Shown here piece after piece: positions 3,955 through 40,564 of a stretch of DNA of 41,522 bases (position 1 is the first letter of the stretch; every line of letters starts with the position of its first letter). The notes under the pieces were generated by a model that saw nothing but the letters and a program-made list of their open reading frames with translations, did no database searches and was not told where the DNA came from. The position numbers were made by a program, and so were the translations under genes. The stretch is from Vicinamibacteria bacterium (GTDB lineage Bacteria > Acidobacteriota > Vicinamibacteria > Fen-336 > JAGNNV01), in contig JBDTQB010000002.1 of the NCBI GenBank assembly GCA_039932395.1, positions 1 to 41,522 on the forward strand. Reading direction: 5' to 3'.

Positions 3955-4908
3955 ATGAAGCGTGGTGAGGTGATCGAGATGCGACGACTGTTCGGCTGGA
4001 TAGCAACATTGGCGGTCCTTGCCCTGATGGCGCCAGCCGTTACCGCGCAAGACGCCGACCGCATCATCCCACTGTGGCCGGAAGGCGTCCCCAACGCGAA
4101 GCCGAACGGTGGCGTCGAGCGCATCGAAGACGGCCGGGTCTACAACGTCCAGATCCCAACCCTTCAATACTTTCCCGCACCTGCGGAAACCGCTAACGGG
4201 ACCACGGTCATTCTGTGCCCCGGTGGCGGCTACGTCCGGCTGGCGGTCGCGAAGGAAGGCAGCGACCTCACGCGGATGCTGAACCGGCTCGGCGTGTCGG
4301 CGTTCGTGCTCAAGTACCGCCTGATCGAATACGGACACCCAGCGCCGCTTCAGGACGTGCTCCGCGCGGTGAGACTGGTGCGATCCCGCGCGAAGGAGTT
4401 CAACGTCAATCCCGATCGCATCGGTGTGATGGGCTCGTCGGCGGGCGGCCATCTCGCCGCCTCGGCGGCCACGCTTTACGACGCGCCGGAAGGCCGCACC
4501 GGCAACAAGGAGATGGACGCGATCAGCGGACGCCCAACCTTCATCGCCTTGCTCTATCCCGTGATCACCATGAAGGCCCCCTACCTGCACGCAGGCTCAA
4601 AGCGCGCATTGATCGGCGAGAACGCTTCCGCCGAGCTGGTCGATCACCTGTCAATGGAGTTACAGGTCACCTCCCGCACGCCACCCACGTTCATCGTTCA
4701 CACCGCCGAAGACACCAGTGTGCCGCTCGAAAACAGCCTCCTCTTCTTCCAGGCGTTGCGGAAGTTCAAGATTGATGCTGAGCTTCACCTGTATGAGAAG
4801 GGCCCGCACGGCTTCGGAACACGTGCCGACCTTGGCCCGACCTCTGATTGGCCAAAGCGCTTGGAGGATTGGGTGCGTTCGCACGGTTGGCTGGACAAGC
4901 CACGCTGA
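3955..4908 (+). CDS. secreted alpha/beta-hydrolase (esterase/lipase-type, Abhydrolase_3-like)
   Basis: A signal peptide MRRLFGWIATLAVLALMAPAVTAQDA is present (alternative start at 3979). An oxyanion-type CPGGGY motif, a nucleophile elbow GSSAGGH, and late Asp/His positions (HTAEDTSVP…GPHGF) are also present. Confidence 0.85.
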   Translation: MKRGEVIEMRRLFGWIATLAVLALMAPAVTAQDADRIIPLWPEGVPNAKPNGGVERIEDGRVYNVQIPTLQYFPAPAETANGTTVILCPGGGYVRLAVAKEGSDLTRMLNRLGVSAFVLKYRLIEYGHPAPLQDVLRAVRLVRSRAKEFNVNPDRIGVMGSSAGGHLAASAATLYDAPEGRTGNKEMDAISGRPTFIALLYPVITMKAPYLHAGSKRALIGENASAELVDHLSMELQVTSRTPPTFIVHTAEDTSVPLENSLLFFQALRKFKIDAELHLYEKGPHGFGTRADLGPTSDWPKRLEDWVRSHGWLDKPR

Positions 4909-4975
4909 GGGCAAGCTCTCTCCGGTCAAATCTAAAGCAAGCGTGTTCGCGGCTCTGGTGCATACTGGCGGCACA

Positions 4976-5638
4976 ATGAATCCCCGGACGTCCTCAGCCC
5001 TGGCCCTCATGTCGGCGCTCACGATTGGATGCGGCGGGAGTTCCACGAGCGCGACCTCTCCGTTCACCGGGGCGAACGGAACCACCGCCACGCCCGCGGT
5101 GACGGCGACACCAACCGCGACGCCCACGCCACAGGCCACCGCCACACCCGTGCCCACGGCGACTCCGGTTCCAACCGCGACACCCGTTCCCACCGCCACG
5201 CCAGCTCCCGGAACCGCAGTGGTTGTCACCGAGGGGTCCACGGAGCTTCCCGGCGGCTTCTTCCTGCTCTTCCCCGCCTATACATTCGCACAGCCGGGAA
5301 CGCTCGATTTCACGGTGGACTGGACATCGAGCTCCAACGACATCGACATCGCGATCGCGAATGGCAGTTGCACGGCCGACCTGTTCCAACTCGACCTGTG
5401 CACCTATGCCGGCGTCGCGCAGAGCCTCACCGACAAACCTGAACACCTGGCCCTTTCGATCTCCGCGACCTCGTACACGCCCATCATCGCGAACTTCAGC
5501 ACCGCGACCGAGACCGTCACCTATCGCCTGACCTTCACGGGGCCAGCCGCCGCGGCCGCTCAAGTGAGTGCCGCTTCCCTTCGACCGATCCTGGTTCCCG
5601 GCCGCGGCAAGTTCACGCGCCGACAAGGAGCTCGTTAG
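4976..5638 (+). CDS. lipoprotein with Thr/Pro/Ala-rich linker and C-terminal beta-rich domain, unknown function
   Basis: The internal ATG at 4976 gives MNPRTSSALALMSALTIGCGG, with a lipobox LTIGC. A T/P/A linker follows, then a ~140-aa domain (…LDFTVDWTSSSNDIDIAIANGSCTADLFQLDLC…). The upstream 86 codons of track ORF 4718.. overlap the esterase gene. Confidence 0.75.
   Translation: MNPRTSSALALMSALTIGCGGSSTSATSPFTGANGTTATPAVTATPTATPTPQATATPVPTATPVPTATPVPTATPAPGTAVVVTEGSTELPGGFFLLFPAYTFAQPGTLDFTVDWTSSSNDIDIAIANGSCTADLFQLDLCTYAGVAQSLTDKPEHLALSISATSYTPIIANFSTATETVTYRLTFTGPAAAAAQVSAASLRPILVPGRGKFTRRQGAR
5138..5191 (+). repeat. 3 x 18-nt in-frame tandem repeat encoding (TATPVP)3 within a longer T/P/A linker (5081..5212)
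   Basis: The units are acc gcc aca ccc gtg ccc / acg gcg act ccg gtt cca / acc gcg aca ccc gtt ccc. The peptide is identical in all three copies, and the copies differ only at synonymous third positions. Confidence 0.9.
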
Positions 5639-14030: not shown

Positions 14031-14885
14031 ATGAAGACTGCGCTTGTCACGGCCATCGTCGCATCGACTCTCCTGAATCCGACCCCGGCACAGGCTCAGG
14101 CGAGTGCCAAGACGGCGAACGTTGCTGTCCGCCTTGTTCCCGAGGTCACCGCGATCCAGGCCGGAAAGCCCTTCACCGTGGCCGTCCATTTCACGATGGC
14201 GCCGACGTGGCACACCTACTGGAAGAACGCCGGTGACGCCGGAATGCCGACCAAGGTGGTGTGGACACTGCCCGATAGCTTCAAGACAGGCGAGCTTCAA
14301 TGGCCGACGCCCATCCGTTCGGTCGACGCCGGTCTCGCGCTCTACGGCTACGACAAGGAAGTCACTCTTCTCACCGAGATCACGCCCCTTCCGTCCCTGC
14401 CGTCCGGCAGCTTCACCATCGCGGCGGCGCTGAGCTGGCTGGAATGCAGCAACGTCTGCATCCCTGGAAAAGCCAAACTCAACCTGACGCTCCCGGCAAC
14501 CGATGCCAAGACGCCGCCCGCGATCGATCCCAAGGAGAAGGCTTTGTTCGCCGCCGCGCGCGCTTCCATGCCTCAGCCGATGCCGACTTTGAAGGCCACT
14601 CACACGGCCAGCGGCGATCATCTCGTGCTCAGCTTGAAAGGCGCGGTCGGCCTCGCGGCACCCCTCGAGTTCTTCCCGGAAACCGGCGGTCTCATCGAAC
14701 CCGCTGCGAACCAGACGGTCACCGGTTCTGGGTCCGTGTGGTCTGTCTCGATGAAGCGCCCCGCGAATGCTGAAGCGCCGCCCGAGTCGATCAAGGGCGT
14801 GCTCGTCTCAGGGTCAGGTGCTGGGAGGAAGGCTTACGGCGTCACATCATCGGGAGGCGCCCCGGCCGCCGGACCTCGCAAGTAG
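14031..14885 (+). CDS. periplasmic DsbD-N-terminal (DsbD-alpha/ScsB-N-like) domain protein
   Basis: A signal peptide MKTALVTAIVASTLLNPTPAQAQA is present. The hallmarks …FTMAPTWHTYWKNAGDAGMPTKVVW…LQWPTP… and …WLECSNVCIP… follow. ATG 14013 is an alternative start. The upstream part of track ORF 13575.. is antisense to nrdR. Confidence 0.8.
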   Translation: MKTALVTAIVASTLLNPTPAQAQASAKTANVAVRLVPEVTAIQAGKPFTVAVHFTMAPTWHTYWKNAGDAGMPTKVVWTLPDSFKTGELQWPTPIRSVDAGLALYGYDKEVTLLTEITPLPSLPSGSFTIAAALSWLECSNVCIPGKAKLNLTLPATDAKTPPAIDPKEKALFAAARASMPQPMPTLKATHTASGDHLVLSLKGAVGLAAPLEFFPETGGLIEPAANQTVTGSGSVWSVSMKRPANAEAPPESIKGVLVSGSGAGRKAYGVTSSGGAPAAGPRK

Positions 14886-15904
14886 TCCTCCGGTTCACGC
14901 TGCTTCGTAATCTGACGCATGCTGGAGAAGGACAAGCCTTCGCGCCCCAGAAAAGCAAGCCCCAAGATCAGGACAGGCAGATTCTGAAGGGCGTGCAGGA
15001 CCAGACCGGCCGCCACCGCCTGGCCGCGATCAATGCCGTAGATCGCGGTGAGCGCCAAGGTATACGACGCGTGGAACCCGCCCACCATGCCGGGTGTCGG
15101 AATCGCGACGCCCACCGTCAGAAACGCGATGATCAGGAAAACCGTGTGAAACGGTAGACCGAATCCGAAAGCCACTGAATTGAGATGGATGATCAGTGCT
15201 ATCGACAGCCATAAGGCCAGCGACTCGACGATCAGACGCGCCCATTGCGCGGGCGACGAGCCGAAAACATCAAGCCCAGAGATAAAAGACGCCACGAGGC
15301 CGCGGATCTTGACGCCCAGGCCGGAGGGCAGCAAGCCGAGAATCCAATCGAGGAGCCGGCGGGCCGGCCCTCCTTCGACGCGCAGCGCCGCCAGGAACGC
15401 CATGCCGGCCAGGGCGATGAGGAAGACAACACCCGCACCAACGCGAAGCGTTTGCATGGTCCCATCCGAGCGCTCCATCACCGGGCGAGGCAGCACGAAC
15501 ATATACATGGCCAGCAGGAACAAGACGGTGATCAGGTCGAGCAGGCGTTCGAGGATGATCGACGCAAGGCCAGCGCTCACCGTCACGCCATAGCGGCGGG
15601 AGGCGAGATACGGCCGCAGCACTTCACCGGCTCGAGGAATGAAGAGGCCGGCCATGAAACCGATATTCGTGATGCCAAACAGGTCGACGATCGACGCGTC
15701 GCGCAAGGACGGCAGGAGAAGACGCCAGCGCGAAGCACGGATGAAGTACGTCACCACCGTCATCGCGATGACGCAAACCAGGGGCAGGGGGCGCGCATGC
15801 TCCATCGCCGCGAGCAGAGCGGCGCGATCGACGCCGTTGGCCGCCAAGGCAAGCAGCGCCGCGGCGAGCGCCAGCCCGAAGGCGAGACGAAGCGCGCTCC
15901 TCAT
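14834..15904 (-). CDS. flippase-like polytopic membrane protein (LPG-synthase TM-domain / UPF0104 family)
   Basis: About 8 TM segments are present, with the N-terminal pattern …VTYFIRASRWRLLL…. The 3' end overlaps the convergent gene by 52 nt. Confidence 0.85.
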   Translation of the reverse strand: MRSALRLAFGLALAAALLALAANGVDRAALLAAMEHARPLPLVCVIAMTVVTYFIRASRWRLLLPSLRDASIVDLFGITNIGFMAGLFIPRAGEVLRPYLASRRYGVTVSAGLASIILERLLDLITVLFLLAMYMFVLPRPVMERSDGTMQTLRVGAGVVFLIALAGMAFLAALRVEGGPARRLLDWILGLLPSGLGVKIRGLVASFISGLDVFGSSPAQWARLIVESLALWLSIALIIHLNSVAFGFGLPFHTVFLIIAFLTVGVAIPTPGMVGGFHASYTLALTAIYGIDRGQAVAAGLVLHALQNLPVLILGLAFLGREGLSFSSMRQITKQREPEDYLRGPAAGAPPDDVTP

Positions 15905-28171: not shown

Positions 28172-28846
28172 TCAAAGCCTGCCGAGCCAGGACTTCAATG
28201 CCTCGATCATCGCGGCTTCGGTCTGTCGGGAGTTGAGGGCGGAGCCGCGCGGCGTTTTGAAAGAATGATCCGCGGCCTCGAATAGCACTAGCTCCGCAGG
28301 CGGTCCCAGCCGCTCCACCGTGGCCTTGAGAAGGTCGAGGCGGGCGAACTCGTCACGCGTGCCTTGAAGAAACAGCATCGGTGACTTGATCTCGGGCAGA
28401 TGCGCATCGCGCAGTTTCGATTCCTGGCCCCGTGGATGGAGCGGATAGGCCAGGAATGCCAATCCGTCGCATACAAGACCGTGGGCCACCGCCTGCGACG
28501 CCATCCGGCCGCCCATCGATCGTCCGCCGACGATCACCTTCGTTGCGCCGAGGGTCGTCCGCGCATACTCCACCACTCGCGCGACCGCCGCTTCGAGAAC
28601 GGGCGCCTGGTCGGGGAACTTCCGCTTCGCTTCCTGATACGGGAAGTTAAAGAGAATCGTGGAGTACTGCCCCGGATCCAGGGCCGCAGCCACTGCGCGC
28701 AACTGGGGCGTCTGACGTGTGCCACCGGCGCCGGGGCCAAGGATGACCGCGCAGGGTCCAGCGCCATGAATGCTGATCGAAAATGGCTTGCCGTCGACGT
28801 CCAGCATCACGACGTTCTCTGGCGCGATCTCGCTCGTCGTCTTCAC
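28172..28846 (-). CDS. alpha/beta-fold hydrolase (dienelactone-hydrolase / KANL3-Tex30-like, COG3571-type)
   Basis: The 224-aa product has …AVILGPGAGG…, a nucleophile elbow GGRSMGGRMAS, and …FLQGTRDEF…ADHSF…. The ATGA overlaps the selB stop. Confidence 0.85.
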   Translation of the reverse strand: MKTTSEIAPENVVMLDVDGKPFSISIHGAGPCAVILGPGAGGTRQTPQLRAVAAALDPGQYSTILFNFPYQEAKRKFPDQAPVLEAAVARVVEYARTTLGATKVIVGGRSMGGRMASQAVAHGLVCDGLAFLAYPLHPRGQESKLRDAHLPEIKSPMLFLQGTRDEFARLDLLKATVERLGPPAELVLFEAADHSFKTPRGSALNSRQTEAAMIEALKSWLGRL

Positions 28847-30720
28847 AGAACGATCCTATCGGGGCCGACGCGTCGAGTCACCCGTTCGCGATCCAGCCAC
28901 TCAAGAAGCGGGATGACGTACTTCCGGGAGAGGCCGGTCAGGTCTTTGACCTCCGCCACATCGAGGCGCGTACCTGATTTGAAGCGCTCCCTGGCCTGGG
29001 CCTTGAAGCGATCGAGAACAGCCCGCGACAACAGCAGCCCCCCCCCGAGTCGCTCCGCCGCCTTCTCCTGAACCAGGACACGCACCGCGTTTTCGCACGC
29101 CTTCTGATCGAGTTTCATTTGAAGGTGGAGGTTCAACAAGGGCAGGCCTGCAAGCCCCGCGGTCGCAAGGGCGTTTTCCAACGCGAGGCGCGCCACGCCT
29201 TCCGGGCCGCTGAGTTGAACGGAGCGCTTGGGCAGCGCGATCAGATCCGCCGAGTCTTTGATGCGTCCCTCTCGGACGAGACGGTCCATCGCGTGTTCAA
29301 AGACACCCGGTCCGGCCTTGGCGAAGACGCGTCGCCGCATCTCTTCCTTCGAGAAGCCTTTCGCCAGCGGATCCTGCTCATGCAGCTGAGTCAGGCGTTC
29401 GATGACGACGCCCTCGAGACCCACAAGGCCCGCTACATCGATCGCAAGACCCTCGTCGCCGCCAAAGACAAACGCCGTAGACGCATTCTGCAGGAGCTGA
29501 CGGACCTGATCGACCGGAACCGCGAAGCGCATGGCTAGCGTCTGAAGCGAGAGACCGGAGACAAAGGCCTCGCGAACAAAACGCAGGGCCGCGTCCGCGT
29601 CACTTTCGGTCGCGGTGTTCTGAAGCGCCTCGATCTCGGCGCGACGTCGAGGTCGCGGCAACGGATCCAGCACCCGCCCGCCCGCGATGGTCTCCATGGG
29701 CGAATAGCTGCGCAGGACGATCCTGTCTCCACGGCCCAGAACGACCGGGCCTTCGAAACGAATCTCCGCGACCTGCATCGCCGAAGCGACGCTCTTCGCG
29801 GCCGCGAGACGGACCCGGCCGAGGACTTCAGCACTTCCCGCATGAATACGGACCCGCGCGTTGTTCTTGAGCGTGACTCCTTCCAGCACATGCAGTTCGA
29901 CGTGCGCGACCCGACTGAGCGCCATCGACGTCTCCCGCACCACCACATCCCCGCGGGTCAGATCTTCCACCGCGACGCCCGCGAGGTTGAGCGCTGTGCG
30001 TTCGCCGCACACCGCGACTTCGGCAGCTGCTCCGTGCACTTGAAGGCCACGCACGCGCGCGCGCTTTCCGGCGGGTTGGAGCATCACTTCGTCCCCCACC
30101 GCCACCGTCCCGCTCATCAGAGTTCCGGTGACCACGGTCCCGAATCCGCGGAGAGTGAAGACGCGGTCAATGGGAAGCCTCAGCACTCCAGATCGCGCGC
30201 GGGCTTCGGTGCCGCGAGCGACGGAGAGCAGGGCCGCGCGAAGGCTATCCAGGCCCAACCCCGTGCGGGCTGACACACTGACCATCGGCGCGCCTTCCAG
30301 AAACGATTCTTTGACGAGGTGACGCGTCTCGTCTTCCACCTGGCGCAACGTCGCGGCGTCCGCTGCATCCGACTTCGTGATCACGATGAGGCCGCTCGGA
30401 ATGGCCAGCATTCTGCAAATATGAAAGTGCTCGCGGGTCTGCGGCATGACGCCTTCGTTCGCCGCGACCACGAGCAACACCGCATCGATTCCAGAGGCGC
30501 CCGCCAGCATGTTGCGCACGAACTTCTCGTGGCCGGGCACGTCAATGAAGGAGGCCATGACGTCGTTCGACAACGGGGCGTGAGCGAAGCCAAGGTCGAT
30601 GGTGATACCTCGCTCCTTCTCCTCCTTGAGACGGTCGGGATCGGTTCCGGTGAGCGCTTTGACCAGGCTGCTCTTGCCGTGGTCGATGTGGCCGGCAGTG
30701 CCGATGATGAAGCTGCGCAT
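28843..30720 (-). CDS. selB: selenocysteine-specific translation elongation factor SelB
   Basis: [25 protein letters not shown]…[18 protein letters not shown]…[10 protein letters not shown]…ITKSD…[21 protein letters not shown]… is the GTPase and EF-Tu-like core. A ~280-aa C-terminal winged-helix region ends …[21 protein letters not shown]…. The 625-aa length is typical of SelB. Confidence 0.92.
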
Positions 30721-30738: not shown

Positions 30739-32919
30739 CTACTGGAAAGCAGGTGCGAGAATCTCGATCTCCGAGAGGCACCATCCATCAAATGACTCAG
30801 CCCCCGGAGTCGCCCGCAACCGGATCGCCTGAACGGTTTTCGGTTCAGCGAAGGCGAAGCCCAGTCGTGCGAACCCGGGCGAGACCATCAGAGTGTCAAT
30901 GAGCTGGCGGCGATGCGCGGCATCGTAGGCGCTCAATTCCTCCCAGGACCCGTCGACGTTTCGTCCTTCGATCACGAAGGACGAAGGAAGCGCCTGGAGG
31001 CGGGTCAGCGGAAGCGTCACGCCGGACACCATTACCGACGCGCCGTGGAAACCTATTTCGATGAACTCGCCTCCATGAACCGGGTTCTCGCTCTTCCACA
31101 GCGTATCGAGATCAGCGTCGCCCAGCCGCCAGGCAGGACCGGCACTGGACCGATAAGCCCAGTCATGACTCGTGATTCGCACGCCCGACGGAAGAGGCGC
31201 CGCCTTCTCGATCGGCCGGGGCTCGATGCGATAGACCGCGTCCATTCCCGGGTCGCCCAGGTCGCCTCCCGACTGGGTGAGCACATGCGCGCGGTTTGGA
31301 AACGAGGCGACGAGGCGCAATTGCGACCGCGCCGGCTCACGCTCGGCGGCCTCCTTCATCGCGGCTCCTCCGTCACGCCCGATGTGGAGCACTAGGGTGT
31401 CCACCCGCACGCGCCGAAGCGCATCCAGAGTCTCGGAGCCCGGAAATTCCGCGAGGCGACGCCTCAGAATGGCGAGGAGGAGCGGCGGGAACGAAAGATA
31501 GGCCTCGGTGATCGGCTTCTCATGGAACAGCGAGTAGTACATCTCCAGCGACTCCATCCGCACGAGACCCTCGCCTTGGATGGGCGCCTCGGCCACGGCG
31601 GTGGCGGAGTCTGTCTTGAGGTACCGGTAAACCTCCGGGATATCTCCGCCCACCGGGATGCGCACCCAGTTCTGCAGCAGCGTCAAATGCTCCAGCGGAA
31701 GAATCAGACACAGGGCCAGGCGAAACCCACGCGAAGGCATGAGCGAGAGGCCGCGGGCCGCGAGGAGGCCCACGAACAACATGACGATCAGGGACAATCG
31801 TTCGGGGATGCGAAGACGCTGGAACAGGGCGACGTGATCGTAGAGAAATCCAAATGGGCCGGGCATGAGCTTGATCCCGCTCCATTGAACGTTCCGGCCG
31901 AGCGAAAGCAGAAGGAAGGTCAGAGCGAGGCCCGCGCCGGCCAGGACCCACGTGGAGGGTCGGATCAACGCCGTCTCGTCGCCCGCGCTCCCACGACCCA
32001 GCAGCGCGGCGACGATCGCCGCTGCGGCAAGGCCTAAGCCCATGAAGCCTACAAAGTGGGCGCCCATCTGCTGACCGCGGGTCTTCCGCCCGAGTGAGCC
32101 GTAAACGACGTTCCCGGCAAGCGGCGCGAAGTAGTGCTCGATTCCCATGGTCTGAGGAGCCTCGCGACGGTAGTCGTATCGGTTGTCCATATCGAGGTAG
32201 GCGTTCATGACGGGAAGGAAGAGCGCTGCCGCCAGCAGGGTCGGCACGGCAAGACCGCGCAGCCGGGTCACGGTCACGCGAAATCGGAACCAGAGATAAG
32301 GAACGAGGATCAGAACAAGGACGATGGATCCGTAGACGAGGTAGTAGTTCTCTGAGTAAGCCTGCGCGAGCATGAAGAGCGCCACCTTCCACGCGTCGCG
32401 CCGCTCGCCCGTTTCCATGTACCCAAGCAACGAACCGATGGCCAGGGGAAGGAACCCGAGAAACACGACGTTGACGCGCGGAGACTCGTTGAGCGCGTAG
32501 GTGTTGAAGGCGAACAGACAGCCGGCGACAAAGGCCGCCGGGTCGCTCAGCCCCAGCCGACGGGCAAGATGACGCGCCGACCATCCGTTGAACGTGTAGG
32601 CCAGCAGCGTGACCACGTTCGTGGCGAAGATCGGATTGCCGGTGATCCAAAGGAACGGAGCGGCAAGCAGAGCGATGAGAAGACGATGCGCTTCGAAGAG
32701 GGACGCGTGGGCATGCGGATACGCGATGCCGGCATCGAAGAGTTGTCCCGGCTGCTCAAACAGCCGGCGTGCCATCTCGCTCACGAAGTAAACGCTGCCC
32801 AGTCCGTCGCCGACGAAAGCGACGGTATCCAATGGATGCAACGACAGGGGCATCAGAAACACGATGCCCAAAACGCCGTACGCCAGAGCGACCGCGATCT
32901 CTCGCCCGAGACCTTTCAT
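30739..32919 (-). CDS. large polytopic membrane protein (GT-C-like glycosyltransferase architecture) with C-terminal discoidin (F5/8 type C)-like domain
   Basis: About 400 aa contain more than 10 TM segments, with an early loop …[19 protein letters not shown]… carrying acidic residues. An exterior domain follows. The last ~150 aa (…[15 protein letters not shown]…GEFIEIGF…VQAIRLRA…[10 protein letters not shown]) look discoidin-like. The function is inferred from architecture only. Confidence 0.75.
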
Positions 32920-32961: not shown

Positions 32962-35448
32962 CTACTCCGTTGAGCCACCGCCGGAGCTTCCGCCTTGACC
33001 GCCACCTTGGTTTCCACCTTGGTTCCCAGATGACGAACCGCCGTCACCCGAGCCGCCGCCGGAGCCACCCTCGCCAGACCCTCCGCCGTTCGCGCCGCCA
33101 TTTTGTCCGCCGCCCCCAGCACCCGGGCCGCGACGTCCGCGACGACGACGACGACGCTGCCGATCGCGATCCGGCTGACCGCCTCCGGCAGACGGTTCAC
33201 CGGCGTTCTCGCGATGAGGACGATCGCCCGAAGGCGCGGCGTTCTCTCCGCCGCCATTTCCTTCGCCTTGGGGAGGACGTGGCTGTTCACGGCGGGGACC
33301 ACGGCCTCCGCGATTCTGTCGCGGTTCGCGCGGCTGGTTCGGGTCGCGCGGCTGCTGGTTCTGATCGCGCGGCTGATTCGGATCACGCGGCTCGCGGGGT
33401 TCCCGAGGCTGGTTCGGATCCCTCGGCTCACGCGGTTGATTCGGATCGCGAGGCTGGCGCGGTTCGCGGGGCTGGTTGGGATCGCGCTGCGATTGAGTAG
33501 CGTCACCGCCCTGCTCACCCTCAGGCCGAGGAACGCCGCCATTCCGGCCACGTCCTCCGCGACGCCGACGGTTGCGACGACGCGGCTGATTCGGATCGTT
33601 TCCCTGATCCGGCCCACGATCGCCGTTGCCGTTGTGTACCGACGGATCGCCCGAGCCTTCCGGTCGCGGAGCGTCGAACGGCCTCTGCTCATCCCCTTCG
33701 CCACGAGGCGCGCCATCTCCCCCGCCCTGCTGCGGCGGACGCGGCCCACGATTGCGATCCGGACCCCGACGCTTCTGGTTTCGATTCTGATTCTGATTGC
33801 GATTCTGGTCGCGGCCGGCGTTCTGGCCCTGTCCCTGGCCCTGCGGCTGATTCTGGCCCTGCGGCTGATTCTGGCCTTGCCCCTGACCCTGTCCCTGTGG
33901 CCGTGGGCCTTGCGAACGCGGGCCTTGTGCGCCATTGCCCTGAGGCTTGTTCGGCCTCTTCTTGCGATCGCCTGGACGACCGCCGGCACCATTGCGACGC
34001 GCGCCGCCGTGACTAAAGCGACGCTCGCCTTCGCGACGCGGACGATGGGCGTGCAACTCCTTCTCGGAACCCCACGTGACTTCACCGCCGCCGGAGTTGT
34101 CCTCCGGCATGAAAGGCGTGGCTAGATCCGAGGCGGCGTCGCCTTGATCTTCGTCATCGCCTTCACCGTCGTCATCTTCATCGTCGTCATCGTCGTAGCC
34201 GTCGCTGTCCTCGTCGCCCTCGTCGTCATCGTCGTCATCGTCGTCATCACCATCTTCGTCGTCGTCTTCATCTTCTTCATCGTCATCGCCGTCTTCGGAA
34301 TCCTCACCGTCTTCGCGATCTTCATCCGAATCGTCGTCGTCCGAATCCTCAGAATCGTCATCCTCGTCGTCGTCGGCGGCGGCGGCGTCTTCGTCCTGAT
34401 CGGCGACCTTGGCGACGCGAGGCGCACTCTTGTTCGCAGCGGGAGCCTCCTCATCCGACTCGATGCGTTCGAGCTTGGCTTCCTGCACCGTCGACTCCGG
34501 CTCATCCGCCTCTGGCGCTTGCTCAGATGAAGCTGAAGGCGCAGTCCCAGGGGCGTCTGGCTTGGCCTTGACTGGTGCCTCGGTGGCGAGAGCCAGAGAC
34601 GCGATCGCCGCAGCGCGACGGCGGGCACCCGGATCTTCTTCACGGTCCTCGGGCGGCGGTCCGATGACCACTTGCTTCTTCGCCACCAGGGCGCGCGGCG
34701 GGATGGGGCGAGCGAGCGTCGGCACGGTTCCGCGCTGGCGCACCGCTTCATACAGTGCGATGCCGGCGGCCACGGACACGTTCAGGGAAGAGACCTGCCC
34801 AAAGACGGGCAGCGACACCACGTGATCGCAGTTCTCCTTGACCAGGCGGCGGATGCCTTTGCCTTCGCCACCCAGAACCAGAACGATGTTGCGTTTGTAG
34901 TCGATCGCGTCCCAGCGTTCCTTGCCGGAGCCGTCGAAACCGACGATCCAGAAGCCCTTGGCCTTGAGCGATTCGATCGCCTGGACGACGTTGCCAATGC
35001 GAGCGATCTTGACGCTTTCGAGGGCGCCCGCCGCGGTTCGCGAGGCGGCGTCGGACAGAGACGCCGTGTGACGGTCGGGAAGGATCACGCCATCGGCGCC
35101 CGCCGCATCCACACTGCGGATGATCGCGCCGAGATTGCGGGGATCTTCAACCCCATCGAGGAGCATGAACAGCGCGGGCGTCCGCGCGCTCTTCTGCAGT
35201 TCTTCGAGAGTGAGGAGGCCCTTCTCGGCGACGATGGCCAGAACTCCCTGATGACGTTCGCCGTCAGCCGCACGATCAAGAGCCTCACGCGGCTCGAAGC
35301 GCAGCGGCACGCCGCGCTCACTGGCCTTGCGGATCACTTCCAGGATGCGCTTGTTGCGCACACCTTTGGTGACCACGACGCGTTCGATGGTGCGAGAGCC
35401 GGCGGCAAGCGCCTCGAGAACGGGATGAATTCCACAAACTATGGGCAT
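32962..35448 (-). CDS. rlmB: 23S rRNA (guanosine-2'-O)-methyltransferase RlmB (SpoU/TrmH class) with ~585-aa low-complexity C-terminal extension
   Basis: Residues 1-~240 read MPIVCGIHPVLEAL…HQGVLA…LLDGVEDPRNLGAIIRS…VLGGEGKGIR…LPVFGQVSSLNVSVAAGIALYE. This covers the SpoU substrate-binding domain and the three SpoU motifs. The same frame has no stop until 32962. AAGGAA lies 7 nt upstream of the ATG. Confidence 0.85.
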   Translation of the reverse strand: MPIVCGIHPVLEALAAGSRTIERVVVTKGVRNKRILEVIRKASERGVPLRFEPREALDRAADGERHQGVLAIVAEKGLLTLEELQKSARTPALFMLLDGVEDPRNLGAIIRSVDAAGADGVILPDRHTASLSDAASRTAAGALESVKIARIGNVVQAIESLKAKGFWIVGFDGSGKERWDAIDYKRNIVLVLGGEGKGIRRLVKENCDHVVSLPVFGQVSSLNVSVAAGIALYEAVRQRGTVPTLARPIPPRALVAKKQVVIGPPPEDREEDPGARRRAAAIASLALATEAPVKAKPDAPGTAPSASSEQAPEADEPESTVQEAKLERIESDEEAPAANKSAPRVAKVADQDEDAAAADDDEDDDSEDSDDDDSDEDREDGEDSEDGDDDEEDEDDDEDGDDDDDDDDDEGDEDSDGYDDDDDEDDDGEGDDEDQGDAASDLATPFMPEDNSGGGEVTWGSEKELHAHRPRREGERRFSHGGARRNGAGGRPGDRKKRPNKPQGNGAQGPRSQGPRPQGQGQGQGQNQPQGQNQPQGQGQGQNAGRDQNRNQNQNRNQKRRGPDRNRGPRPPQQGGGDGAPRGEGDEQRPFDAPRPEGSGDPSVHNGNGDRGPDQGNDPNQPRRRNRRRRGGRGRNGGVPRPEGEQGGDATQSQRDPNQPREPRQPRDPNQPREPRDPNQPREPREPRDPNQPRDQNQQPRDPNQPREPRQNRGGRGPRREQPRPPQGEGNGGGENAAPSGDRPHRENAGEPSAGGGQPDRDRQRRRRRRGRRGPGAGGGGQNGGANGGGSGEGGSGGGSGDGGSSSGNQGGNQGGGQGGSSGGGSTE
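33319..33486 (-). repeat. ~6 degenerate in-frame 27-nt repeats encoding DPNQPREPR-type units
   Basis: The peptide is RDPNQPREPRQPRDPNQPREPRDPNQPREPREPRDPNQPRDQNQQPRDPNQPREPR. The plus strand shows recurring ggctggttcggatc / ggctgattcggatc blocks. Confidence 0.85.
33820..33900 (-). repeat. in-frame GQ/QNQPQG-coding repeats, including a perfect 2 x 18-nt tandem duplication (33841..33858 = 33859..33876)
   Basis: The plus strand has ctgcggctgattctggcc twice in tandem. The peptide is …GQGQGQGQNQPQGQNQPQGQGQGQ…. Adjacent gattct hexamer repeats at ~33783-33806 encode NRNQNQNRNQ. Confidence 0.9.
34129..34404 (-). repeat. in-frame Asp/Glu-coding trinucleotide-rich tract (~92 codons, mostly GAY/GAR)
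   Basis: The plus strand shows runs such as gtcgtcatcgtcgtcatcgtcgtcatc. The peptide is …DDDEDDDSEDSDDDDSDEDREDGEDSEDGDDDEEDEDDDEDGDDDDDDDDDEGDEDSDGYDDDDDEDDDGEGDDEDQG…. Confidence 0.9.
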
Positions 35449-38481: not shown

Positions 38482-39534
38482 TCAGTGGGGACGACGGCGG
38501 CGCGTCGCGGACTCGGGACGACGGGAAGCAGGCGCAGCTGGAGCCGGGCGACGCTCAGCGCCGGCAGTCCGGCGAGACGAAGTTCGCTTCTCGTCGGACC
38601 GGCCCGTTGCGTAGCGACCAGAGGATGCGGGACGCTCCTCGGAGGTGCGGGCGGGCGCGGGGCGGCTGAAAGGCCCAGGCCGGTCGGCGAAAGGCCGAGA
38701 AGGAGCCGGCCGTGCCGGTGCCATGGGCTTTGTGCCTTCCAGCTCGGTCGCATCCTTGCGAGGACCCGTGCGGGGACGGAAAGGCGCGGGCGTCGGCTGC
38801 GCGAACTTATCGGAGCGCATGTTGCCGCGTCCCTTGAGGAACGAGGAAACCTCGCGCGGAGTGAGGCTACGGAACTCACCCACGTCGAGGCCATGCGAAG
38901 TGAGAAGCCCAAGGCCAACGCGCTTCAGCTTCTCAACCGGATGACCGAGCGCCTGCAGCAAGCGTCGCACTTCATGATGCTTGCCTTCATGCAACCGCAC
39001 CTCGACCCAGGAGTTCTCGGCCTGCTCGATGACGCGCGCGCCATCGACCGACAGCCGCTCGCCATCAAGAACCAATCCGCGTTTCGCGCGGGCTAAGGTC
39101 TCGGGAGTCGGCGTGCCTTTGACCTTCGCTTGATACCGGCGCTCCACTTCGTAACGCGGATGCGCCACGCGCTCGGCAAAAGCACCATCGTTGGTGAGAA
39201 GAATCAGGCCTTCGGTCGCGTAGTCGAGACGGCCCACGGGATAGAGCCCGGGAAACTGAGGCACCAGGTCCATCACGGTTTTCCGGTGCTCGGGATCGTA
39301 GCGGGTCGAGACGACGCCCTTCGGCTTGTTGAGAAGGAGATACACATTCTCTGACGTGGGCTTCACCTTGCGATCGTCGAGACGGATGTCATCGACGGCG
39401 GAATCGGCCTTGGCGCCAAGTTCCTGAACGGTTTTGCCGTTCACGCTCACCCGGCCCTGAAGGATCAGTTCTTCGGAGGCCCGGCGGGACGCGACACCGG
39501 CGCGGGAAAGAATCTTCTGTAGACGTTCGACCAT
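38482..39534 (-). CDS. rluB: 23S rRNA pseudouridine synthase RluB (RsuA family) with Arg/Pro-rich C-terminal tail
   Basis: ATG 39534 lies 4 nt after the scpB stop. MVERLQKILSRAGVASRRASEELILQGRVSVNG is the S4 domain. …LLNKPKGVVST…YPVGRLDYATEGLILLTNDG… contains the catalytic Asp. A ~110-aa basic tail (…RPAPARTSEERPASSGR…RRPESATRRRRPH) follows. The 101-codon extension to 39837 overlaps scpB. Confidence 0.9.
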   Translation of the reverse strand: MVERLQKILSRAGVASRRASEELILQGRVSVNGKTVQELGAKADSAVDDIRLDDRKVKPTSENVYLLLNKPKGVVSTRYDPEHRKTVMDLVPQFPGLYPVGRLDYATEGLILLTNDGAFAERVAHPRYEVERRYQAKVKGTPTPETLARAKRGLVLDGERLSVDGARVIEQAENSWVEVRLHEGKHHEVRRLLQALGHPVEKLKRVGLGLLTSHGLDVGEFRSLTPREVSSFLKGRGNMRSDKFAQPTPAPFRPRTGPRKDATELEGTKPMAPARPAPSRPFADRPGPFSRPAPARTSEERPASSGRYATGRSDEKRTSSRRTAGAERRPAPAAPASRRPESATRRRRPH

Positions 39535-39538
39535 ACGG

Positions 39539-40564
39539 TTATGAGTCTGACCTATCTGGGTTGGAAGCGTCGGGGGCGTCCTCGGATTCCGCGCTCGAGG
39601 GACCCGGTTCGCTCGATGCGTCTTCGCCATCGGGCGCGTCGGCCCCCTCGGCGTCGGACGAAGAAGAGTCTTCCGTCGCCGCTGAATCGGATTCGGGTTC
39701 CGGCTCCGCCGCCTCCTTTGCCGCGGCAGCGGCACGTGCCGCCGCTTCGGTGATGTCGGCGGCATCGACGGTCGAATCAAACGAAAGATCGCGTTGCGCC
39801 GGATCGGGCGGATCCGAATCGAAGAACGGAACTTCAAGCGGCAGCGGCGTGTCGAGCGCGCGCTTCAGGCCGAGCACGTCGACGTCTTCGCCCAGGATCT
39901 CGGCGAAGTCCTCGATCTTTGGCAGATCGTCGAGATCCTTCAAGCCGAACTGAAGGAGAAACTCTTTGGTGGTGCCATAGAGCAGAGGACGGCCGACCAC
40001 TTCCTTGCGTCCGACGATCTTGATGAGGCGCCGCTCGAGCAGTGTCTTGACGACACCGCCTGACTTGATGCCGCGCAGCTCGATGATTTCAGGGAGGGTC
40101 GCAGGCTGTTTGTAGGCAATCACGGCAAGGGTTTCGAGAGCCTGAGTGGAAAGACGCGCGGGCGATTTCGGATCGATCAGCTCACGCACCCATTCGTTGT
40201 GCTCTGGACGCGAAGTGATCTGGTAGCCACCCGCCACTTCGATGAACTGCAGTCCGCGATTGTCGGCCGAGTACATCACCTTCAAGCCTTCGATCTGTGC
40301 TTCGACCACGGCCTTGTCGATGCCCTTGAAGACCCTCGTGAGGTCCTTCATGGTCACCGGTTCCTTGGAGACGAACACCAGCGCTTCGAGAATCGCGAGA
40401 ATCTCTTCGGGCTTGGTTTGCAGTTCGTCGGGGATCGCTTCGGCGTCGGTCTCTTCAACCGAACCGGGCGCAGCTTCGCCGTTTTCGGCAGCGGTGGCGG
40501 CAATGACGGCCACGACTTCGTTCGCTGACTCGGCCTCTTGCGCCTTGATTTCGTCTTCGGACAT
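39539..40564 (-). CDS. scpB: segregation and condensation protein B with acidic N- and C-terminal extensions
   Basis: The core is …ILEALVFVSKEPVTMKDL…IEVAGGYQITSRPE…LSTQALETLAVIAYKQPATLPEIIELRG…LLERRLIKIVGRKEVVGRPLLYGTT.EFL..FGL. About 55 acidic aa are added at the N-terminus. A ~110-aa Asp/Glu/Ser/Ala tail is added at the C-terminus. Confidence 0.9.
   Translation of the reverse strand: MSEDEIKAQEAESANEVVAVIAATAAENGEAAPGSVEETDAEAIPDELQTKPEEILAILEALVFVSKEPVTMKDLTRVFKGIDKAVVEAQIEGLKVMYSADNRGLQFIEVAGGYQITSRPEHNEWVRELIDPKSPARLSTQALETLAVIAYKQPATLPEIIELRGIKSGGVVKTLLERRLIKIVGRKEVVGRPLLYGTTKEFLLQFGLKDLDDLPKIEDFAEILGEDVDVLGLKRALDTPLPLEVPFFDSDPPDPAQRDLSFDSTVDAADITEAAARAAAAAKEAAEPEPESDSAATEDSSSSDAEGADAPDGEDASSEPGPSSAESEDAPDASNPDRSDS

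Follow-up and report, generated by a model that had tools for sequence, protein, structure and literature searches.

Enzymes that modify rRNA are as a rule compact, and deleting them has mild effects. What, then, are the 588 residues that follow the catalytic part of an RlmB-type rRNA methyltransferase in a soil-type acidobacterium of the class Vicinamibacteria? The gene, rlmB, lies on a stretch of 41,522 nucleotides (assembly GCA_039932395.1, contig JBDTQB010000002.1, positions 1 to 41,522), which as a whole is called the window below. It is a single open reading frame (ORF) of 828 codons plus a stop codon (window 32962..35448, minus strand). A first-pass annotation had described it as RlmB fused in frame to a ~585-residue low-complexity tail, acidic and then basic, and the 828-codon ORF bears this out; the span given there, 32962-34713, comprises codons 246-828 and the stop codon. 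We find that the enzyme looks complete, that the low-complexity tail (amino acids (aa) 241-828) is genuinely coding and enlarges a shorter tail common in Vicinamibacteria, and that it may tether the enzyme to rRNA or to precursors of the 50S subunit (pre-50S).

Catalytic part of the protein

The RlmB family (YjfH in Escherichia coli) consists of 23S rRNA Gm2251 2′-O-methyltransferases of the SPOUT/SpoU type. TIGR00186, the NCBIfam equivalog model for RlmB with 240 positions, matches aa 3-239 of the window protein with 209.7 bits against a cut-off of 160.15, while the narrower model PRK11181 stays below its cut-off (201.6 versus 366). The best match in the Protein Data Bank (PDB) is E. coli RlmB (1gz0; aa 3-239, E 4.5e-49). 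All three SpoU motifs are present (DPRNLGAIIRS, LGGEGKGIR, and SSLNVSVAAG), and AlphaFold2 models the SPOUT enzyme domain confidently. The matches to TIGR00186, to 1gz0, and to the two Pfam domains in Table 1 indicate that the N-terminal 240 residues form a normal, complete RlmB, in agreement with the earlier proposal that the core ends near codon 240. Judging from these matches, the gene encodes a catalytically intact-looking member of the 23S rRNA G2251 2′-O-methyltransferase family. The tail, searched separately, gave no domain in Pfam, NCBIfam, or PDB sequences, and its only matches were compositional ones to acidic tracts (Ies2, MAK16, and CobT).

Orthologs of the long tail and selection on it

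Whether the tail is a genuine part of the protein can be judged from its relatives. With each GTDB species represented by one genome, a scan gave 12 Vicinamibacteria metagenome-assembled genomes (MAGs) with an RlmB catalytic domain 93-100% identical to that of the window. In all nine loci that span the whole gene, one frame is open over 681-801 codons with the same order of blocks; the contigs of the remaining three (L009, L011, and L012) end in the gene. NCBI, JGI, ENA, and Logan assemblies add ~17 cluster representatives (653-833 aa), the long-tail clusters being annotated plainly as RlmB by NCBI and JGI, and two more assemblies contain versions of 736-744 aa. The long form is present in at least 10 species-level genomes and ~17 protein clusters, and neither a stop codon nor a frameshift, be it soon after codon ~245 or further into the tail, occurs in any of ~27 independent sequences.

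The substitution rates should also be noted. Between the window gene and its orthologs, the number of synonymous substitutions per site (dS) is ~1-1.7, which means saturation. The ratio of nonsynonymous to synonymous rates (dN/dS) is 0.015-0.042 in the catalytic domain and ~0.2 in the entire tail. It falls to 0.03-0.08 in the linker island that opens the tail (computed over aa 241-286) and to 0.03-0.07 in the island at aa 435-480, where dS is ~0.7-1.6; these two islands are constrained as strongly as the catalytic domain. The codon usage of the tail resembles that of the neighboring genes. The frame and the architecture recur in independent assemblies, and the islands are kept by purifying selection. 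For the architecture, this excludes mis-assembly, a lost stop codon, and a chance frame; the tail is genuinely coding and selectively maintained.

One caveat concerns the copy number of the DPNQPREPR units (aa 655-712), which has no independent support and leaves the architecture unaffected: an exact 30-mer from this block is absent from the genome_contigs and metagenome_contigs collections. The copies in the DNA are imperfect (70-96% matches), as would not be expected of a simple collapse or expansion artifact. That the real protein ends near codon 245, the rest being repeat mis-assembly, a lost stop codon, or a two-gene fusion, is extremely improbable: the region is repetitive, the short-read contigs of the three relatives named above stop within or ahead of it, no independent copy of the window-specific repeat block was found, and GC-rich low complexity leaves other frames open for 340-389 codons, but the same frame and architecture recur in nine complete loci and ~17 clusters from different projects and assemblers, the tail islands are selected as strongly as the enzyme, and short-tail homologs are colinear with the long tail.

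An exact look-up of the 828-aa protein found no record, and a word-index search with aa 426-500 gave no matches. As HMMER and full-length searches did find long-tail relatives, the latter negative reflects the index, not a true absence.

Organization and predicted disorder of the tail

The blocks of the tail are listed in Table 1. All those named in the first-pass annotation (a Pro/Ala linker, a D/E block, an R/G/Q/N/P stretch, about six DPNQPR units, RRRRRRGRRG, and a G/S/N/Q end) are found in the ORF. The linker is A/P/E-rich over aa 246-348 and begins with the motif RPIP...(V/I)GP..D.E.DPG at aa 247-274. The region of aa 349-440 contains 51 Asp and 16 Glu in 92 residues. The D/E tract looks unusually long for a bacterial protein, an impression formed without a survey of bacterial tracts. 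The six DPNQPR units start at aa 618, 656, 668, 677, 689, and 702, and aa 501-800 are composed mainly of Gly (66), Arg (54), Pro (46), Gln (43), and Asn (28). In the 588 residues of the tail, 73 Arg stand against 12 Lys, and there are 2 RGG and 10 RG motifs and 5 aromatic residues. Charges are strongly segregated compared with same-composition shuffles (delta, z = +12.7; sequence charge decoration (SCD), z = -19).

Three of the five aromatic residues, including W459, are held by the island at aa 435-480 (island peptide FMPEDNSGGGEVTWGSEKELHAHRPRREGERRF), which is a candidate short linear binding motif. AlphaFold2 was run on aa 1-500 of the window protein and on one short-tail homolog. Both models contain a single helix directly after DPG (aa 273-288), with a predicted local distance difference test (pLDDT) score of ~75. 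The pLDDT is below 50 beyond ~aa 296, the island at aa 435-480 included, and aa 481-828 are essentially devoid of hydrophobic residues. The tail is thus predicted to be almost entirely disordered.

Table 1. Domains and blocks of the window RlmB, from the N terminus to the C terminus
Feature	Residues (aa)	Window coordinates (strand)	Remarks
SpoU_sub_bind, L30e-like N-terminal substrate-binding domain	3-75	35224..35442 (-)	PF08032, E 6.3e-19
SPOUT catalytic domain, SpoU_methylase	93-233	34750..35172 (-)	PF00588
Linker island	241-288	34585..34728 (-)	RPIPPRAL..KK.VVIGPPPEDREEDPG, then predicted helix ARRRAAAIASLALA
Spacer, A/P/E/S-rich, variable	289-348	34405..34584 (-)	Semi-conserved EP.VPEASLE motif; dN/dS ~0.2-0.5
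Poly-acidic block	349-434	34147..34404 (-)	~77% D or E; net charge per residue to -0.83
Strongly conserved island	435-480	34009..34146 (-)	GDAASDLATPFMPEDNSGGGEVTWGSEKELHAHRPRREGERRF; core FMPxDxxGxGEVTWGSExxLHxHRPRRxGxRRFG
Basic/polar disordered segment	481-617	33598..34008 (-)	RPGDRKKRP, (GQ)n/QNQPQG/NRNQNQ tracts, conserved RRGPDRNRGPRPPQ
Arg box 1	618-635	33544..33597 (-)	DPNQPRRRNRRRRGGRGR; conserved in long-tail clade
Tandem DPNQPREPR-type units, n = 5, window-specific	655-712	33313..33486 (-)	DNA repeats imperfect
Arg box 2	760-774	33127..33171 (-)	DRDRQRRRRRRGRRG; conserved; RRRRRRGRRG = aa 765-774
Terminal G/S/N/Q tract	775-828	32965..33126 (-)	Uncharged; 32-62 aa after Arg box 2 in long-tail clade

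Short tails in Vicinamibacteria and their enlargement

The nearest database homologs, with an enzyme identity of 62-69%, are labeled Vicinamibacteria, and almost all of them are 400-455 aa long. Tails of 159-215 residues (median 192) with a net charge of +3 to +18 are found in 100 of the 120 nearest. In a broader genome sample, each of the 17 complete Vicinamibacteria-type loci encodes a tailed protein (392-497 aa), whereas none of the 57 other RlmB loci sampled does (240-277 aa); the latter come from Pyrinomonadaceae/Blastocatellia, Terriglobia, Acidiferrales, Chloracidobacterium, Nitrospirota, Nitrospinota, and Ignavibacteriae. The RlmBs of Bacillota and Pelagibacterales also end right after the catalytic domain. 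The clean boundary, 17/17 versus 57/57, marks the tail as an innovation at the level of the class.

The short and long tails are colinear in the alignment. A short tail begins with RPIP...(V/I)GP..D.E.DPG, followed by the helix, a small acidic patch, and a Trp motif (IHEEAAW.GPT), and continues with R-rich sequence, an internal RRRRRRRGR box, a G/P/A/E spacer, and a terminal poly-Arg box. The element RPIP...GP..D.E.DPG is invariant in all Vicinamibacteria tails aligned, and D268, E270, D272, P273, and G274 are invariant in an alignment of 77 sequences. The window protein has each mark of this subfamily: the linker motif, an acidic patch, W459, and two Arg boxes (aa 623-635 and 765-774 in this comparison) with a G/P-rich spacer between them. 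Its island at aa 435-480 is colinear with the HEEAAW.GPT motif of the short tails, Arg box 1 with their internal RRRRRRRGR box, and Arg box 2 with their terminal poly-Arg.

The window tail is thus an enlarged form of the ~190-aa Vicinamibacteria tail, found in a nested clade. Four changes mark the long clade, whose tails have ~450-590 residues. A D/E block of 72-131 aa (40-89 D+E), confined to this clade, is inserted between the DPG-helix and the Trp motif. The Trp motif is elaborated into the FMPxDxxGxGEVTWGSE island, QN/G/P-rich segments are added, and a G/S tract of 32-62 residues follows the second Arg box. The spacer between the Arg boxes is a hotspot of expansion, occupied by DPNQPREPR in the window and by PRPEGDRG, PRPPQP, or RPESQGERGP in relatives. 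The whole-tail net charge in the long clade is -22 to -57. Intermediate forms also exist (L026, L038, and L044).

The first-pass annotation knew of no such tail on a bacterial RlmB. Searches of the literature on RlmB tails, disordered rRNA methyltransferases, and low-complexity proteins of Acidobacteria found no description of it either; in databases the tail is common, as the counts above make clear. Tailed RlmBs are a common but undescribed subfamily.

Two further loci should be mentioned. A tailed RlmB of 440 aa (L034; 66% identity) occurs in a MAG labeled 'uncultured Hyphomicrobium sp.' and is probably a binning contaminant. A 529-codon frame upstream of an RlmB-like gene of Actinomycetospora, considered as an N-terminal extension, was rejected as a spurious frame in GC-rich DNA.

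A separate combination of basic and acidic modules in Chloroflexota

An RlmB with two disordered regions is also found outside the Vicinamibacteria. In a Chloroflexota protein of 850 aa (P0286), RlmB occupies residues 440-680 (TIGR00186, 233.8 bits). The 439 residues before it consist of R/G/P/D/F-rich repeats (DNDRPPFRRD and GGDRPPFRGG) with a net charge of +13, and the 169-residue tail after it contains a poly-Asp run and has a net charge of -59. Three related genome loci of Chloroflexota (L110-L112) share the layout, the N-terminal disordered region being 330-440 aa in this group. The disordered regions lie at other ends of the enzyme and show no sequence relationship with the tail of Vicinamibacteria; RlmB was thus paired with a basic and an acidic module convergently. 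Such convergence argues that the pairing is functional.

Resemblance of the tail to bacterial RNA-binding disordered regions

Run against 1.84 billion representative proteins, a profile of the tail retrieves RlmB tails strongly and, weakly (E 1e-6 to 1e-4), disordered C-termini of RNase E/G fragments, of a 1227-aa DEAD-box helicase, and of a superfamily 1 (SF1) helicase. The matches in RNase E/G and the helicases carry boxes of the RRRRRRRGRRG type separated by acidic or neutral spacers.

A search with a degenerate DNA pattern found DPNQPREPR, partly in tandem, in insertion or initial regions of the termination factor Rho from Hymenobacteraceae and Planctomycetota. The Rho loci with DPNQPRE(P/N)R repeats are L104 and L107 (Hymenobacteraceae) and L108 and L109 (Planctomycetota/Pirellulales), and the N-terminus of the Planctomycetota Rho also has G-rich, RNRRR, and DPNAP elements like those of the RlmB tail. 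The DPNQPREPR vocabulary recurs across phyla on different RNA enzymes. The likeness between the repeats of Rho and RlmB is probably due to convergence or slippage, homology being not demonstrable. According to published work, the additional regions of Rho are disordered, rich in R/D/N/G, and furnished with APA, QN, and RxR motifs, and they have been linked to higher RNA affinity (PMC11347177).

Proposed role of the tail

We propose that the tail serves as a tether and chaperone for rRNA or pre-50S particles, gated by its acidic block and provided with docking islands, and we assign this reading a probability of roughly 0.5. The Arg boxes and R-rich segments would add multivalent RNA affinity of low specificity, by which RlmB may be tethered to nascent 23S rRNA or early pre-50S particles, possibly with an activity as RNA chaperone or assembly factor. 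The acidic block may fold back on the Arg-rich half and gate it electrostatically within the molecule. Such gating would keep RlmB from binding RNA or the nucleoid indiscriminately and would be relieved when rRNA, the correct polyanion, or basic ribosomal proteins displace the block. The proposal further casts the aromatic island and the DPG-helix as sites at which the RlmB dimer itself or a partner would dock specifically.

The proposal fits the finding that E. coli RlmB aids 50S assembly independently of methylation (PMC11194073). The gating step is suggested by three observations. Across species, the part of the tail beyond the island keeps a net charge of +19 to +25, even as the acidic block ranges from 40 to 82 D+E; the charges are blocky (z = 12.7); and Rho of Bacteroides thetaiotaomicron, which undergoes RNA-dependent condensation, is autoinhibited by contacts between basic and acidic motifs inside its disordered region (PMC13269538).

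Several points weigh against this proposal. The main one, as far as simple RNA tethering is concerned, is the net negative charge of the whole tail, by which RNA would be repelled as long as the acidic block is not otherwise occupied. The short-tail relatives do without the long D/E block, which may therefore have some other use. Large parts of the tail change quickly and by repeat slippage, so that some of its length may be close to neutral. The matches of the profile to RNase E and the helicases are largely composition-driven, and the functional steps themselves are inferred from composition and analogy. Finally, the AlphaFold2 models contain no confident placement of the tail islands on the catalytic domain, for aa 1-500 and for the short-tail homolog alike; the alignment for the window protein held only short-tail sequences and misplaced the Trp island, which makes the missing docking of the island uninformative.

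Alternative roles

The tail could instead be a driver or client of condensates, phase-separating RlmB with rRNA or partitioning it into RNA condensates that already exist, such as RNase E bodies or foci of rRNA transcription, and so forming a nucleolus-like compartment for ribosome biogenesis. Its extreme charge segregation speaks for this, as do the Arg-box and DPNQPREPR vocabulary that it has in common with the disordered regions of RNase E and Rho and the dimeric state of RlmB (1gz0 family), by which the tails become at least bivalent. The same grammar drives condensation of Caulobacter RNase E, whose C-terminal domain needs alternating charge blocks for RNA-dependent bodies or foci (10.1101/272286), and of B. 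thetaiotaomicron Rho (PMC13269538, PMC10284900), and nucleolar proteins are characterized by D/E tracts (PMC11938373). However, the tail has almost no aromatic residues or other stickers outside one island, and short-tail relatives do not have the D/E tract. rRNA-modifying enzymes are normally of low abundance, which makes a scaffold role unlikely, and a client role is indistinguishable from simple tethering by sequence alone. We consider a condensate role unlikely.

It is also possible, if quite unlikely, that growth of the tail has been mostly neutral, with the DPG-helix, the W-island, and the Arg boxes as the only functional parts and the extra ~400 residues as slippage tolerated in a GC-rich genome. 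The range of lengths (653-833 aa), the tandem repeats in the DNA, and the dN/dS of the spacer agree with this, and so do the lineage-specific repeats at one site, where DPNQPREPR x5 in the window is replaced by the other repeats named above. The neighboring gene products RluB (basic) and ScpB (acidic) have low-complexity tails as well. On the other hand, the composition, the order of blocks, and the charge after the island are kept despite saturated synonymous sites, the ~27 independent sequences are free of stops and frameshifts, and Chloroflexota converged on the same architecture.

The acidic block may itself be what is new in function and act on cations instead of on the basic half of RlmB, either by chaperoning basic ribosomal proteins to pre-50S or by locally buffering Mg2+, polyamines, or protons. 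Acidic nucleolar and histone chaperones handle basic proteins, and we know of no bacterial precedent for such a chaperone of ribosomal proteins. Every long-tail member keeps a D/E block of 72-131 aa though its sequence varies, the whole tail is net negative, and an acidic tail was gained independently by RlmBs of Chloroflexota. There are also weak matches to the acidic tails of the eukaryotic pre-60S and chromatin factors MAK16 and Ies2, but these are purely compositional. Most Vicinamibacteria RlmBs, moreover, keep a basic tail in the absence of the D/E block. Such a role for the block seems improbable.

The most far-reaching reading would make RlmB of Vicinamibacteria and some Chloroflexota a biogenesis factor resembling nucleolar proteins, which organizes a condensate or hub around nascent rRNA, concentrates pre-50S particles, chaperones ribosomal proteins, and recruits partners via FMP..GEVTWGSE..LH.HRPRR. 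We regard this combination as highly doubtful.

Gene surroundings

The ATG of rlmB is at 35448, with a Shine-Dalgarno-like AAGGA ~10 nt upstream. The gene stands in a minus-strand row between the bifunctional ispDF, 40 nt upstream, and a gene for a 726-aa membrane protein, 42 nt downstream; a promoter and terminator scan of the rlmB locus gave nothing better than shuffles. The downstream protein (window 30739-32919, minus strand) is a multi-pass membrane protein with no Pfam or NCBIfam match at E <= 1e-3.

Further along the same strand, window 38482-39534 encodes a 350-aa 23S rRNA pseudouridine synthase of the RluB type (S4 and PseudoU_synth_2 domains; TIGR00093 above its cut-off). Its C-terminal tail of ~119 aa is P/R/A/S-rich and basic (net +18) and ends in RRRRPH, which makes it the second rRNA-modifying enzyme with a basic disordered tail in the rlmB gene row. 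A listed 451-aa ORF for RluB overlaps scpB, and the true start is probably the Met at 39534. ScpB (segregation and condensation protein B; window 39539-40564, minus strand) has an A/D/S/P/E-rich, acidic C-terminal tail of ~106 aa (net -26).

SelB, the selenocysteine-specific elongation factor, is encoded at window 28843-30720 (minus strand; GTP_EFTU and SelB winged-helix domains), implying that the organism uses selenoproteins. At window 4718-5638 (plus strand), one ORF encodes a linker of Thr/Pro/Ala repeats (TPTATPTPQATATPVPTATPVPTATPVPTATP), a type common in secreted proteins or lipoproteins, and the overlapping ORFs on both strands there are probably artifacts of this repeat. An ordinary 356-aa integral membrane protein gene at window 14834-15904 (minus strand) explains the strong AT-skew spike at 15-16 kb.

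Significance and comparison with known systems

Neither the enzyme nor this class of appendage is new, the latter also occurring on Rho, RNase E, and helicases; the tailed RlmB itself is undescribed in the literature found, its novelty being limited by these close conceptual precedents. If the tail is only a tether, it is a modest extension of the biology of bacterial disordered regions. If the nucleolar-like reading were true, it would be a bacterial analog of the nucleolar dense fibrillar or granular component on a modification enzyme. The class-wide tail, its enlargement in one clade, and the convergence in Chloroflexota suggest that the non-catalytic side of RlmB, RNA tethering or assembly, can face strong selection. 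The protein is a natural test case for charge-block disordered regions that tune an rRNA enzyme, and it offers a conserved short motif as a candidate binding site for a partner. It is also a bacterial counterpart in which ideas on nucleolar D/E tracts, RNase E bodies, and Rho condensates can be tested.

E. coli RlmB and the window protein have the L30e-like N-terminal domain and the knotted SPOUT domain in common. The E. coli enzyme ends 0-38 residues past the catalytic domain, like the 57 sampled RlmBs from outside the Vicinamibacteria, whereas the window protein runs 588 residues further. The short-tail RlmBs of Vicinamibacteria (~390-500 aa; P0060 and P0002), labeled in databases only as RlmB, have a homologous, colinear tail; theirs is net basic and ends at the second Arg box, whereas that of the window clade is net acidic.

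The first-pass annotation had seen the domain logic of nucleolar proteins in the acidic-plus-basic tail. Fibrillarin is an rRNA 2′-O-methyltransferase, and nucleolin, fibrillarin, and D/E-tract proteins resemble the window protein as rRNA-directed proteins that join a long D/E tract to an Arg/Gly-rich basic disordered region. As functional analogy, namely a D/E tract plus a basic region on an rRNA 2′-O-methyltransferase, the comparison stands; the match of the D/E tract is only compositional, and homology does not hold. Fibrillarin is a Rossmann-fold enzyme guided by small nucleolar RNA (snoRNA), whereas RlmB is a SPOUT enzyme. The description of the tail as RG-rich, of the glycine- and arginine-rich (GAR) type, has to be given up. 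The tail is devoid of the F/Y-RGG pattern of fibrillarin and nucleolin, with its two RGG motifs and few aromatic residues, and contains poly-Arg boxes, QN tracts, and P/R/E repeats instead; basic residues gather in the poly-Arg runs. Lys-rich blocks among E-rich regions, another element of nucleolar grammar, are also missing, given 12 Lys versus 73 Arg. The N-terminal region of the Chloroflexota RlmBs, with its GGDRPPFRGG repeats, is nearer to a GAR domain than the window tail is.

The D/E block of the acidic-plus-basic description is confirmed, and the closest vocabulary is that of bacterial tails, namely those of Rho, RNase E, and the helicases. The additional regions of type 2 Rho (Bacteroidota, Planctomycetota, and Actinomycetota) are likewise R/D/N/G-rich disordered appendages on an RNA-handling enzyme and include DPNQPREPR; they differ in being N-terminal or internal and in their host enzyme, and a long pure D/E tract is not reported there. 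The C-terminal scaffold domain of RNase E and the extensions of DEAD-box and SF1 helicases resemble the tail in their alternating acidic and Arg-rich blocks and RRRRRRRGRRG-type boxes. RNase E has many short blocks (10-30 aa) and partner-binding microdomains, whereas in the RlmB tail a single, very long acidic block precedes a half that is net basic. The features of this charge-block class (disorder, segregated blocks, an A/P linker, QN tracts, Arg boxes, and an RNA enzyme as host) are all present in the window tail. The class is a functional one and not a homology family. Read in this way, the vocabulary of the tail fits bacterial RNA-binding disordered regions better than the eukaryotic GAR domain.

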